From Octopus sinensis (Eukaryota), in contig NW_021833663.1 in assembly GCF_006345805.1 (NCBI RefSeq), positions 1 to 56,982 of the forward strand: a stretch of DNA of 56,982 nt, in the 5' to 3' direction. The position numbers and the translations under genes are program-made. The notes under the pieces were generated by a model that worked only from the letters and a program-made list of their open reading frames with translations, was not told the origin of the DNA and ran no database searches. Positions 1 to 52,510 of the stretch are shown one piece after another. The stretch's first letter is position 1; each line of letters begins with the position of its first letter.

Positions 1-700
1 TCTCTTCATATAGCTGCTTTAGCCCTTCTCTTTCCTCCTCCTTCGCATCCCTCCATCTGGTTCTGAGTTTTTCTTCTCTTCTCGAATCTTTGCGATCCGT
101 CTTTCTCTCCTCGATGATCCACTCTTTGCCGTTGATTCTACCTTCCCTGTTGTTTCCAGTCCAAATCTTTTCTCTCCTTCCTGGTAGATTGTATTAACCA
201 GGTTTTCGAGCTTTTGTTCGTCGTCGCCTTTGAATTTGGTGGTCATTCTTGCTACCTCGTCGTCGAATTTTTTATAGCTCGCTGCGTCATTTGCTTTCGG
301 CCACTTAACCTTTGTCTTCTTCACGCCTATCAGTCTTTTTGACTATTCCGATTCAACTGTGGAATGAACCTCGCTGTGGTTATTTTCCGGGGGGTTTTGG
401 CCACACGTCTTATGGTTTATCAACCAACGTTGTTGAATTACTTTCTTCTCACACACCTTCCCTTGGTGGATTCTCAGCCCGATGTAACTAGCAAACACCT
501 TTCCGCAGCAGCTGAACTCCTCATCTACCATTCCTATACCGTTTCCTTTCCCATTGTCTATTTCCGGTCCAAGTCCATTTCGTTTTTTCCCGTCCCTATT
601 TGATCCTTTGTTATCCCCCCGTGGTCCGGGATCATGGGGCCATGATTTCCCATGTTTTTTTTGTTGCAATTTTTTCCCGGATCCGGCTGCAAGCCCATTT
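1..700 (-). mobile_element. 5' fragment of an RLE-type non-LTR retrotransposon (HERO/NeSL-like), frameshifted
   Basis: N-terminal Zn finger CCGKVFASYIGLRIHQGKVC, then VKWPKAND…FDDEV…IYQEGEKRFG…RRERRIAKIREE. Confidence 0.65.
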
Positions 701-1330
701 CATCCTTCGTTACGCTGTCGTACTGTCAAATATGCTGTTAGTAAAGTACCTAAATTCTTAATACATAAATGTTGCTAATTGCAATGCAATTAACTTATTT
801 ATTGTATCAATTCCACATTTGAGTGGTGGAGCAGCTGTTTCAGTACCCAGTCATAGTGTTGTAAGAATGTATATATTTCAATAATTTATATTATGATATT
901 TATAATTTGTATTCTTATCTTATATGTATTGAATTATAATGTATATATGTATGCTATTAAGGCGCTTTTTTGTTAAATGAATAAATAATATCCGAAAGCT
1001 GTTTCTCCAATTTGGTAACGAACCACATGGTTCCGGGTTCAGGCCCACTGCGTGGCATCTTGGAGATGTATCTTCTACTATAGCCTCAGGCTGACCAAAG
1101 GCCTGTGAGTGGATTTGGAATACGAAACTGAGAGAAGCCCATCCTATATATATATATATATATATAGTTACGCATATTTGCCATTTGAATATGGGGAACC
1201 CCTAAGGGTGGATGCTACTGTAGTTTGTAGCCTCAGGAAGATATCTCCTCCTGCTGGCTATAGACACACTATCTGTGCCCTCTCAGTATTTGTGAAGGGA
1301 AGTCACCCTCCCCGTCTTCAACTCATGATA

Positions 1331-1375
1331 CACACGGACTCGAGTTTCAAGGTGTTTACCTATCATCAGCGTGTG
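1331..1375 (-). ncRNA. Hammerhead ribozyme, inverted copy of 1709-1753
   Basis: Exact reverse complement of the + strand motif. Confidence 0.9.
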
Positions 1376-1708
1376 AACACCTTGAAACTCGAGTCCGTGT
1401 GTATCATGAGTTGAAGACGGGGAGGATGACTTCCCTTCACAAATACTGAGAGGGCACAGATAGTGTATCTATAGCCAGCTGGAGGAGATATATTCCTGGG
1501 GCTACAATCTACAGTAGCATCCACCCTTAGGGGTTAGCCATATTCAAATGGCAAATATGCGTCACGATGTGTTACCGCTACTGTTTATAACTCGCTCTGA
1601 GATTTATCATTGTTTGACTTCACTTTTTCAATATCAGTGTCAATCGACACTGGAAAAAGTATATGTATTTGTGAAGGGAGCTGACTTCTCGTCGACAACC
1701 ATGATTGT

Positions 1709-1753
1709 CACACGCTGATGATAGGTAAACACCTTGAAACTCGAGTCCGTGTG
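1709..1753 (+). ncRNA. Type I hammerhead ribozyme (minimal, palindromic stem III)
   Basis: CACACG-CUGAUGA-U AGGU AAAC ACCU U-GAAA-CUCGAG-UC^-CGUGUG; GUC cleavage predicted after 1747. Confidence 0.9.
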
Positions 1754-1958
1754 TATCATGAGTTGAAGACGGGGAGGATGACGTCCCTTCACAAATACTG
1801 AGAAGGCACAGATAGTGTGTCTATAGCCAGCTGGAGGAGATATCTTCCTGGGGCTACAAACTACAGTAGCATCCACCTTAGGGGTTAGCCATATTCAAAT
1901 GGCAAATATGCTTCACTATGTGCTACCGCTACTGTTTATAACTCGCTCTGAGATTATC

Positions 1959-2019
<61 letters not shown>

Positions 2020-2599
2020 TAGTAGATTAGTAGATTGATTGCATATTTAATATCATTATTTCATCAGAGCTTTCTTCGTCCAACAAATGCCGATATGGGA
2101 ATTTTTCGAATCAGCATGTACACAATATGTTAAAATTTAATTAAAATTATCAACCTTTCTTTAAGTTAAACGGAAGCAAAATCGAGGGGCACACATGTGT
2201 AGGAATACCATATGGGCATTCGATACAGTGTATATACGTACGTGCCAAGAAACAGTTTGTGTGAGATTTGGCTGCTTTTTCTAGCATGTGGGTATCCTGT
2301 TTGAAGTCTGTAGAATCGGGAGGTAAGAGGGTTGATGCAGATTTTATTTTTTGACATTTTGAAAATTTCCATTTTACAAACAATTATTTTTTTCAGAATC
2401 AGTTTCTCAGTTTTTTATATCACCTATTTTGTCAAAATAAAATTCTGGAGAAAGAGAAAAACGAAGAAAGAGAGGGCGCAATTGAAAATTTTGAAATTGC
2501 GATTTTTCTGAATTTTTTTCGTTTGTGGAATCGCTATCTCCATAACCTAAAACATGGTTCTCCGTAAAAAATCACACAAATGTGAGAGTGGTGGGTTAA

Positions 2600-2815
2600 G
2601 TCTCCAACATGTGTACCTCACTTCACCTCCAGGGTGACCAGGAGAACGAAATATCTTGTAGCAGTGTAGGAGGAGAGAAATGCTTGTCATTCCACTCATC
2701 CAGGTTTCTCTAACTACTACCATATCCAAATTAGGCGTCCTGAGGTCATCGAGGAAAAGCCCTTGTTTCCAATTCGACGTCAGGTTGCAAACATTTACAT
2801 TGAGTGTAAACATGA
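2600..2815 (-). mobile_element. LINE APE-endonuclease N-terminal remnant (L1/Tx1-like)
   Basis: TLNV..L....K…DLR..NLD.VVVRETW motif. Confidence 0.5.
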
Positions 2816-3947
2816 AAAAAAAAGTTGGTCTACCTTCGGTTGGAGATGGGCGTTAACCCCTCACGTTCCATTTATTTCGGAGCTTGTGAAGTCTCTATGT
2901 GTGTGTTTGTGTGTGTATGTGAGTGTGAGTGTTCATGTTTATGTGTGTCCTTATCCTACGATCGCAGGCTGGCACGGCGTTGCTTTGTTTATGTCTCTAT
3001 AAAGAAACGTTCAGCAAGAATAAGAAGACATTACAAATAAATAAACAGGTCCAGTGTACCTGACAGAAACTCATCAAGGCAGTGCTCCAGCATGGCCACA
3101 ATCCATTGAATGAAAGAAATCCAGGGTAAAGAGTAAACTGCTACAAACTTCGATGTAAGGATATAGAGCTTCTTACTGTTTCCTCCACCGACTATGCTTT
3201 TCTCTCTCCCTACCTCTCTCTCACAAGCACACACACACACACACACACGCACACATTCACACACACACACACACATACAAACACGCACACGCACATACAC
3301 AGACACACTCTTTCACACACACATTCACACACACACACATTCACACACACAAACACACACACACAAACACACACATACACACGCAAACACACACACACAC
3401 ATTCACCTGCGCGCGCGCGCACCCACACTGACACACACATAAAGCCATACACAAACAGACACAAGGAAAGAAGCACAGACACACACAGAAATATCAATAG
3501 TAACATTAACATGGATATTTTATTTCAAGGGAGGCTACTCTAATTTATACGATCTATATTTAAGAGTTACCTCCCTTAAAACTATATTATAATGCTTGTT
3601 ATCTACGTTAAATATAAATATATATACATAAGAACGACCCGTCGGTTACGACGACGAGTGTCCCAGCTGATATGATCAACAGAACAGCCTGCTTGTGAAA
3701 TTAACGTGCAAGTGGCTGAGCACTCCACAGACACGTGTACCCCTAACGTAGTTCTCAGGGAGGGAGATTTAGGGTGACACAGAGTGCCACAAGGCTGGCC
3801 CCATGAATTACAGATACGACTCAGTTCTCAAGTTTTAAGGAAAAACACAGATAGACAGACAGACAGACAGACACACACACATTCTAAGTTTTATATATAG
3901 AGAGATACATCTGTAAATGTAATATGTGACATGTATTCGGTAGCCAA

Positions 3948-4514: not shown

Positions 4515-5749
4515 CTGGAAACACAATGAGAAAAAACTTCTATAAAATAAAGTAAAATAACCCGAGCCCTTATGTTTTATATATAACCCCAATTGTCATC
4601 TGCTATTTCCCCATACGTTAAACATATGAATTACAGAAGAATCATACACAATTTATATTCAAAAACATAGTTTACATTAATTACAGAAACTAGTAATGAG
4701 AATTTAATTATGAGGAATATGTTGTACAATCCTGACAATATTGGTTCAGGAATATCTTCCAGAAAAACTGGGCAAGTTGAGAAGGAAAATATGAGAAACT
4801 TCTTAGTTCTATTCTGTGGATGTATGTTTTACATATATCTATCTATGGCACAGTGAAGACTTTACGTTGTTCTGTTTATGACTGTGTTTAAATTTCATGT
4901 ACAATTATCTATAGAAATATAACGAGAGAGCACTCCGTCGGTTACGACGACGAGCGTCCCAGCTGATACGATCAACGGAACAGCTTCCTCGTGAAATTAA
5001 TGTGCAAGTGGCTGAGCACTCCACAGACACTTGTAACCTTAACGCAGTTCTCAGGGAGATTCAGCATGACACAGAATGTGACAAAGCCGGCCCCCTTCAA
5101 ATACAGGTACAACTGATTTTTGTCAGCTGATTGGACTGAGGCAACATGGAATAAAATCTTGCTCAAGGTCGCAACGCCTCGCCAGGAATTGAACTCATGA
5201 CCTTACGATGGTGAGCAAAATAACCAAACCACTAAGCCACGCGCCTTCTATCTCCCCCTCTCTCTCTCTCTCTATATATATATATACTCTTTTACTTGTT
5301 TCAGTCATTTGACTGCGGCCATGCTGGAGCACCGCCTTTAGTCGAGCAAATCGACCCCGGGACCTATTCTTTGTAAGCCCAGTACTTATACTATCGGTCT
5401 CTTTTGCCGAACCGCTAAGGGACGGGAACGTAAACACACCAGCATCGGTTGTCAAGCAATGCTAGGGGGCAAACACAGACACACAAACACACACACATAC
5501 ATATATATATATATGTATACATATATACGACAGGCTTCTTTCAGTTTCCGTCTACCAAATCCACTCACAAGGCATTGAGGGTGCAAGGGTTGAATTGTCG
5601 GCGTTTTATATTTTTTTCTAATTTAGCGCATTGTTGTCTTAGATTTTGTCGACTAAGCATTATAGTAGGCTCCATTTGTTATTATGACACAATTCACACA
5701 GCTAGATACTTTGGAAACGACATGTTGTTCTGCTTGGCATTCGCCCCGG

Positions 5750-7020: not shown

Positions 7021-52510
<45,490 letters not shown>

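Follow-up and report, generated by a model that had tools for sequence, protein, structure and literature searches.

The window, i.e. the whole stretch of Octopus sinensis DNA that was analysed (56,982 nucleotides, an entire contig), carries at positions 1164-1960 a single insertion of a 352-bp non-coding unit, flanked on both sides by (TA)n. Three pieces of this unit make up the insertion; they are approximately 95% alike, one being inverted and two direct. We number the unit such that its position 1 is window position 1609, and the predicted ribozyme cut falls between unit positions 139 and 140. Both flanks of the insertion consist of (TA)n, which would hide any target-site duplication. The features of the locus are as follows.

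1145-1166, no strand: (TA)n tract at the left end, the insertion target (from sequence; target-site duplication obscured)
1164-1376, minus: inverted 5'-truncated arm, unit positions 100-311, ending at the tail-less stop; 95% identical to 1708-1919
1331-1375, minus: complete type I hammerhead core of the inverted arm, predicted cut 1337/1336, predicted to be masked in its context
1373-1376, no strand: GTGA, 4-nt overlap of the two arms where they meet head to head (from sequence)
1373-1608, plus: direct 5'-truncated unit, unit positions 117-352, holding a half hammerhead
1396-1747, plus: monomer from cut site to cut site, 352 nt, a predicted branched rod (folding against shuffles)
1609-1960, plus: complete 352-bp unit, unit positions 1-352 (alignment to the unit)
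1622-1660, plus: side hairpin with compensatory changes between subfamilies (fold and alignment)
1665-1798, plus: long rod extending stem I of the hammerhead (1665-1679/1784-1798, 1685-1693/1768-1776, 1696-1705/1755-1765)
1709-1753, plus: complete type I hammerhead, GUC^ at 1747 (generic scan, core and helices)
1815-1955, plus: 3' module, unit positions 207-347, 62-78% identical to a sister family
1920-1960, plus: 41-bp "tail" between the preferred ends (unit ~311 and ~352), on the direct arm and without a counterpart on the inverted arm
1958-2018, no strand: (TA)n followed by a (TG)n tract, right end (from sequence)

The sequence-only reading of this DNA had placed here, at 1166-1961, a retrozyme candidate with self-complementary flanks. 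The retrozyme reading stands for the family, as does the existence of the element, with its limits corrected to a start at approximately 1164-1167 and an end at 1960; what had been overlooked is that the locus is a single insertion of the Penelope-like element (PLE) type from a high-copy family. The supposed flanks are the second arm, inverted and 5'-truncated, rather than terminal repeats. The inverted 5' copy itself had been recognised correctly, with 1164-1376 being 95% complementary to 1708-1919, and the cleavage motif does recur with the period described: GAAACTCGAGTC is found on the plus strand at 1384 and 1736, exactly 352 nucleotides apart, and once more at 1337-1348 on the minus strand. 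Frames on the plus strand within the element reach only 56-101 aa, in line with the earlier remark that it holds no credible open reading frame. A tblastn search of the window with PLE protein gave no match, and no frame combining a reverse transcriptase (RT) and a GIY-YIG domain is present inside the element. No tRNA gene was found in the window, and a match to mir-339 at 1324-1415 (37.5 bits, cut-off 60) was rejected, as it is the hairpin of the inversion junction.

Window positions 1-3460 are duplicated at 99% by contig C9503, which is likely the other haplotype, i.e. an uncollapsed haplotig. Several other repeats lie in the window. Positions 1104-1166 are the 3' end of an abundant SINE-like repeat, the TA tail of which hosts the retrozyme insertion, and copies of this repeat occur elsewhere (e.g. 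5506-5569, 41685-41748, 51773-51838). Another interspersed repeat is present in two copies, 81-91% alike, at 3639-3802 and 4935-5094. On the minus strand, open frames at 19-669 run off the contig start and contain a weak C2H2 zinc finger (E 0.005); they look like the N-terminal region of a non-LTR retrotransposon of the R2/NeSL/HERO type.

The hammerhead and its predicted folding

Both strands of the 57-kb window were scanned with a generic type I pattern, at least five of six stem I positions being required to pair. Exactly two complete type I hammerheads were found, at 1709-1753 (plus) and 1375-1331 (minus). The plus-strand one comprises the CUGAnGA / GAAA / UH core and helices I-III, and is open at stem I. 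Its stem I is CACACG/CGUGUG, CUGAUGA occupies 1715-1721 and GAAA 1736-1739; a U-U mismatch is followed by stem II, AGGU/ACCU, and the 2-bp stem III carries the palindromic ACUCGAGU. No Rfam model matches the element at the gathering score, and the hammerhead models give nothing at E<=1 either; the ribozyme is therefore called from its core motif and helices. The upstream plus-strand copy is a half hammerhead that keeps the 3' side of stem II, GAAA, stem III, GUC^ at 1395 and the 3' strand of stem I; as had been reported, it lacks CUGAUGA, since CTGATGA occurs within the element only at 1715 (plus) and 1363-1369 (minus).

The pairings named in the sequence-only reading reappear in the predicted folds. 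These are the extension of stem I, CATGAT (1700) with ATCATG (1755), the pairing of GTATTTGTGAAGGGA (1665-1679) with TCCCTTCACAAATAC (1784-1798), and the hairpin at 1622-1660. Folded as a circle, 1396-1747 is predicted to form the self-paired branched rod that had been proposed (z -5.0 against 60 shuffles); for the linear monomer z is -5.8, and none of 100 dinucleotide shuffles folds as well. The predicted probability of monomeric stem III is 0.0, and the active fold of the monomer is predicted to lie 3.6 kcal/mol above the minimum free energy (MFE).

The loop of stem III had been described as a palindromic CUCGAG that allows double-hammerhead cleavage, which could release a circularisable RNA. 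It is a palindrome indeed, of 8 nt rather than six, namely ACUCGAGU. For the family the double-hammerhead idea holds as a prediction: helix III is short and palindromic, and the predicted two-strand minimum-energy fold (-47.9 kcal/mol) is exactly the double hammerhead, which agrees with the dimer model described in PMC4209133. The case for release of a circle from this particular locus is weak, because the upstream plus-strand hammerhead has no core and the inverted arm is predicted to mask the other one. Specifically, every hammerhead helix has a predicted probability of 0.0 in a transcript of 1164-1960, as the inverted arm pairs with these helices; in a transcript of 1373-1960, which is free of the inverted arm, the downstream core is predicted to pair with the upstream cut site at ~0.12. 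The window copy is a daughter insertion, and it is predicted to be a poor source of new circles.

A high-copy family and the ends of its insertions

A DNA search, suggested earlier as a check of copy number, showed that the family is high-copy, with 2734 first-look candidates in the 2.72-Gb assembly (40 scored, from which 79 matches were listed). Exact patterns, the counts of which are lower bounds, have at least 91 matches for the intact 35-nt core, at least 318 for a 35-nt motif just downstream of the cut site, and at least 275 for a gapped core pattern, which additionally picks up older subfamilies and two or more unrelated hammerheads. The copies are grouped into discrete subfamilies with approximately 1.2% further scatter; older subfamilies, 73-89% identical, share the unit as well as its two ends. 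The family consists, as a non-LTR retrozyme does, of non-coding tandem units (352 bp here, within the 150-450 bp typical of the class), with one type I hammerhead each and GC content below 50%. Tandem arrays of 3-8 units occur, the longest one seen (locus L173) having seven full units and a partial one. Parts of the unit are covered by contigs from four runs, three of them guessed to be RNA and one unlabelled; since such contigs hide ends, strand and circles and may contain DNA, we weighed them neither for nor against expression. The junction of a circle would, moreover, read the same as that between tandem units in the genome.

Hammerheads generally tolerate the changes U4C and C17A, and are inactivated by G5A. 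We selected 90 core-spanning segments by the downstream motif, i.e. independently of the core, and 71 of them have an intact core. Common variants, which are the changes between subfamilies, are U4C, C17A and an A-to-G change in loop III that keeps its self-pairing through G-U. Loop III is ACUCGGGU in 40 segments and ACUCGAGU in 35, both being self-complementary (75/90). Helix II lacks the G10.1-C11.1 pair at its base, where 51 of the 90 segments have A-U and 37 have U-U, as at the window locus; G-C and C-A are seen there in older subfamilies. In the L173 / L028 array (C2, 197.25 Mb), all seven full units carry the core change G5A, thus either no working ribozyme was involved in the origin of the array, or the change spread through it later. 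In the axolotl, the base of helix II of the hammerhead HHR_Amex2 likewise shows the U-U; like the window hammerhead, HHR_Amex2 has a 2-bp stem III with a tetraloop, and it cleaves better as a dimer (PMC7229834).

Covariation in the predicted structure is partly above controls. An alignment of 50 units, mostly picked by best hit or intact core and so biased towards core conservation, has 93.6% paired cells for the named structure. Two-sided change is observed in 53 cells, against 22+-3.5 in shuffles, a count inflated by relatedness of the copies and obtained for a structure derived from the window's copy; by pairs (n = 10) the signal is not above shuffles (216/500 shuffles). The two-sided changes are located in the side hairpin, the long rod and helix II. 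The RNAalifold consensus of the linear alignment partly prefers local hairpins over the long rod, therefore the named rod was counted separately.

For the insertion ends the 318 motif matches were ordered along the genome and the first 100 used, which gave 86 stretches and, after four overlapping duplicates were dropped, 82 loci holding 84 insertions and 133 arms. Almost all arms (127/133) end at unit positions 300-314 (n = 67) or 345-352 (n = 60). Head-to-head arrangement is observed in 49 of the 84 insertions, and 45 of these 49 pair one end near 311 with one end near 352; none has two like-ended arms, and four have at least one end elsewhere. The window locus obeys the same rule, its inverted arm stopping at 311 and its direct arm at 352. 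In an earlier set, which overlaps partly with this one and was selected by best hit or by an intact core, 31 of 38 head-to-head insertions had one end of each kind. In that set, outward ends abut TA repeats in 95 of 116 cases, as a raw count.

This is the anatomy of PLE insertions: a partial tandem with an inverted 5'-truncated copy, a tail at one end only (here 41 bp), and an AT-rich or microsatellite target. In PLEs the inverted 5'-truncated copy is accompanied by a one-ended tail of 30-40 bp (PMC8557442, PMC3846280), the tail corresponds to the interval separating two internal sites at which the RT starts, and the enzyme, a predicted dimer, cuts both strands of AT-rich DNA (PMC11167929). 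The ends of the retrozyme insertions match both this inverted-copy and tail pattern and the two internal RT start sites. Further features shared with EN+ PLEs, as these are described in PMC3846280, PMC8557442 and PMC11167929, are the short junction overlap and ends that lie downstream of the hammerhead cut and are unrelated to it. In contrast to EN+ PLEs, the window family has no RT/GIY-YIG frame, its tail is slightly longer (41 vs 30-40 bp), and it is the whole unit that is repeated, rather than an element with an ORF.

The inversion junctions are all different (49/49), and among the 31 solo arms there is no shared 5' boundary and no shared upstream flank beyond one pair with a CA/TA microsatellite. 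Thus, the inverted structure is built at each landing. These observations also bear on the alternative that the unit is a DNA-level repeat (a satellite, MITE or fold-back duplication) with an incidental hammerhead-like motif. The tandem and inverted organisation and the lack of an Rfam match would suit such a repeat; on the other hand, the 3' ends of the arms are fixed at two positions with scattered 5' ends, every inversion junction is different, and a sister family, detectably similar only in the 3' module, has likewise retained a hammerhead core. We regard this alternative as extremely improbable.

Locus L093 (6800-8230) has three neighbours separated by TA tracts, namely a PLE, a retrozyme of the window type and another inverted repeat with a hammerhead; this cluster is nested use of one microsatellite target.

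The template of the insertions

The element is likely an animal non-LTR retrozyme, i.e. a non-autonomous PLE. We consider it probable that the 352-bp repeat, being such a retrozyme, is copied in trans by a PLE RT/GIY-YIG protein, probably from circular RNA. The arms end 172 or 213 nt downstream from where the ribozyme is predicted to cut, hence these are not ribozyme ends. Among the 93 arms with the downstream motif (L173 excluded), 82 cross the cut site and 45 continue from unit position 1 into unit position 352. No pile-up of 5' ends is seen at the cut site in these 93 arms (8 observed vs 6.4 expected, P 0.31). Such a pile-up had been hinted at by the best-hit loci and was rejected with this less biased sample; another one, at unit position 1 (11/64), is largely an artefact of short unaligned remainders. 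Near the unit junction, the hazard of 5' ends is only mildly raised against the natural tandem. As the cut site is crossed without a pile-up, the cleaved linear monomer is not the usual template, and genomic 5' ends give no indirect sign of self-cleavage at the predicted bond.

Segments of one insertion are more alike than segments of different loci. With L173 excluded, they diverge by 2.2% within an insertion vs 5.8% between loci; at subfamily-diagnostic cells they mismatch in 50 of 1030 comparisons within an insertion vs 44.8% between loci, and 46 of 348 observations of rare variants are common to segments of one insertion. Thus, one template variant yields both arms. Gene conversion between the arms could add to this agreement.

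Long arrays are rare in the sample: only six arms at the 82 loci contain two or more cut sites, and two intact hammerheads on one arm were found at three of the 82 loci, so most loci would be unable to template long concatemers linearly. (The Xenopus retrozyme preprint, bioRxiv 10.64898/2026.07.22.740005, calls "active" the loci with at least two consecutive complete hammerheads, an arrangement absent from the window locus and present at these three.) The fresh junctions, the read-through and the shared variants, taken together, indicate that each insertion is built anew from a circular or multimeric template. A circle explains how short loci regenerate full concatemers, and a circular-RNA model for retrozymes has been proposed (PMC7229834); a long uncleaved multimer explains the read-through equally well.

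The latter leads to the alternative that the template of the same non-autonomous PLE is a long linear RNA, read through from one or several tandem master arrays, with the hammerhead trimming the RNA or being a passenger, and with no circle involved. Read-through of the cut site without a pile-up fits uncleaved RNA, arrays of 3-8 units do exist, one of them with G5A throughout, and the active fold of the monomer is unfavourable, as given above. From the literature, hammerhead cleavage is dispensable for PLE insertion in vitro, where unprocessed RNA was the main substrate (PMC11167929), and only one of nine Xenopus dimers was cleaved (bioRxiv 10.64898/2026.07.22.740005). Against these points, long arrays are as rare as stated, the 31 solo arms share neither a 5' boundary nor a non-microsatellite upstream flank, the changes between subfamilies remain compatible with cleavage and keep the palindrome, and the unit junction is bridged by the rod, as would be expected of a circle. 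We judge the linear template to be unlikely, and retain the circle as the preferred one.

If a circle is formed, it could also be a viroid-like RNA that replicates from RNA to RNA and is occasionally written into the genome by a PLE. The size of 352 nt, the rod fold and the hammerhead agree with this, and RNA-RNA replication has been raised for mussel circles unmatched by database entries (PMC7229834). However, the unit has a hammerhead in one polarity only, the minus-strand core belonging to the inverted arm, and discrete subfamilies with ~1.2% scatter are what master-gene retrotransposition yields. We find a viroid-like origin very improbable, and return below to copying of a retrozyme by a PLE enzyme.

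The mobilising enzyme, the 3' module and known systems

Two PLE families of the genome were compared with the retrozymes. One is young and intact (L092, L094, L095), with a 775-aa RT + GIY-YIG frame and a median divergence of 0.4% among its top 29 matches; the other is more decayed, and both end in TA tracts with optional tails. Neither the first family (29 match loci and four longer stretches) nor the second (11 loci) shows similarity to either retrozyme family beyond nested copies, and thus no autonomous PLE sharing terminal sequence with the unit was found among these two. At L094 there is a separate upstream frame of 467 codons, and the young PLEs (L092, L094, L095) have in their 3' region a variant hammerhead-like motif, CCGAAGA or CUGAAGA.

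Fragments of PLE coding sequence lie near copies L038, L093, L113, L130, L135, L150 and L209. At two of these loci, L038 and L093, we considered PLE-retrozyme chimaeras and rejected them, as these are separate insertions sharing TA tracts. Such proximity would be expected if the unit were the pseudo-LTR (pLTR) of an autonomous PLE and the loci its 5'-truncated stumps, and PLE pLTRs do carry type I hammerheads and have the same inverted and tail anatomy (PMC4209133, PMC3846280). Yet 45 of the 93 arms pass unit position 1 straight into position 352 of another unit, none of the arms crossing the unit junction was seen entering coding DNA, the PLE fragments at L038, L093, L130 and L209 are set apart by their own ends or by TA tracts, and the unit has no sequence in common with the two PLE families compared. 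There is little probability in this explanation, and we proceed with a retrozyme mobilised in trans.

What could recruit the enzyme is suggested by an older sister family (L246-L265, e.g. L258 and L259), with 1410 candidates, a period of 367 in L259, and both tandem and inverted forms. It was reached by chance, from one locus of a genome search with Rfam RF00163 in which 74 of 265,813 candidates were scored and which otherwise returned other hammerhead families. The sister hammerhead is different, having a CUGAGGA core and a longer stem III. The similarity detected between the two retrozyme families is confined to unit positions 207-347 (~140 nt), and three helix positions of this module swap G-C and A-U between the families (10 sequences). 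As the module contains both start sites, we infer that it is the element recognised by the enzyme, i.e. a candidate loading signal for the reverse transcriptase.

The preferred reading then implies the following course of events. A source locus with a tandem pair of hammerheads would be transcribed; the hammerheads, having a short stem III, are predicted to fold as a double hammerhead via ACUCGAGU and to cut at GUC^, giving a 352-nt monomer. By analogy with mussel and axolotl retrozymes of the literature, a host ligase may close the monomer into a rod-like circle. The putative PLE protein would likely bind the 3' module and cut a (TA)n target, such targets being those observed. Synthesis of cDNA would start inside the unit at ~311 and at ~352, two fixed sites separated by 41 nt, as the observed end points suggest. 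Two cDNAs of variable lengths would pass the cut site and the unit junction, and be joined head to head by a chemistry presumed from the observed anatomy.

A stronger version is that rolling-circle reverse transcription of a ribozyme-made circle by a PLE enzyme has left its record in the genome as this family: subunits of a dimeric RT-endonuclease would start at the two fixed sites on one circle, one per target strand, and build both arms at once, and the ~140-nt module would be a portable PLE-loading signal for any RNA. We put this forward tentatively, as a possibility that we hold with less than even confidence.

The retrozyme class is already known, hence the locus itself is ordinary. The nearest relatives by description are the axolotl Rtz_353 with HHR_Amex2 and the mussel 350-390-bp repeats, which have likewise a non-coding tandem unit of ~350 bp, low GC content, one type I hammerhead per unit and a highly self-paired monomer (Cervera and de la Pena 2020, PMC7229834). 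The window family differs from the retrozymes described there in that most of its insertions are shorter than two units, and more than half combine a head-to-head arrangement with a PLE tail; circles and cleavage were demonstrated in that work, whereas for the window family they are predicted from sequence. The plant LTR retrozyme, with a type III hammerhead in its LTRs, a PBS and PPT, and a 4-bp target-site duplication, is a different thing, since here the topology is type I and the units are tandem. Among non-autonomous PLEs, the Chlamys ones, e.g. MRC1, are similar in being non-coding, multicopy, head-to-tail insertions mobilised by PLEs; as described in PMC8557442, MRC1-type elements have 3' sequence in common with an autonomous family, and their clade is one that lacks canonical hammerheads.

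The Xenopus preprint (bioRxiv 10.64898/2026.07.22.740005) also reports co-occurrence of retrozymes with PLEs and proposes mobilisation by PLEs. As presented there, the case rests on co-occurrence and pLTR homology, and the sampling described includes no mollusc; the octopus link rests instead on the anatomy of insertions, no pLTR homologue being found in the two PLE families. To the published case the octopus insertions add the signature of two start sites (45/49). Retrozymes in cephalopods were not found reported in the literature searched, nor did the titles and abstract openings tie the PLE tail signature to retrozymes, the scope of both searches lying outside subscription papers, repeat databases and supplements. 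The analysis adds evidence on which enzyme mobilises animal retrozymes and from what template: the insertion anatomy points to a PLE-type enzyme and excludes the cleaved linear monomer as the usual template, and the module common to both retrozyme families provides a short, defined candidate cis signal.

Several other hammerhead families are present in the genome (L119, L120, L239-L245). In one of them (L244/L245) the hammerheads are arranged in tandem approximately 431 bp apart, and the copies end in TA tracts.
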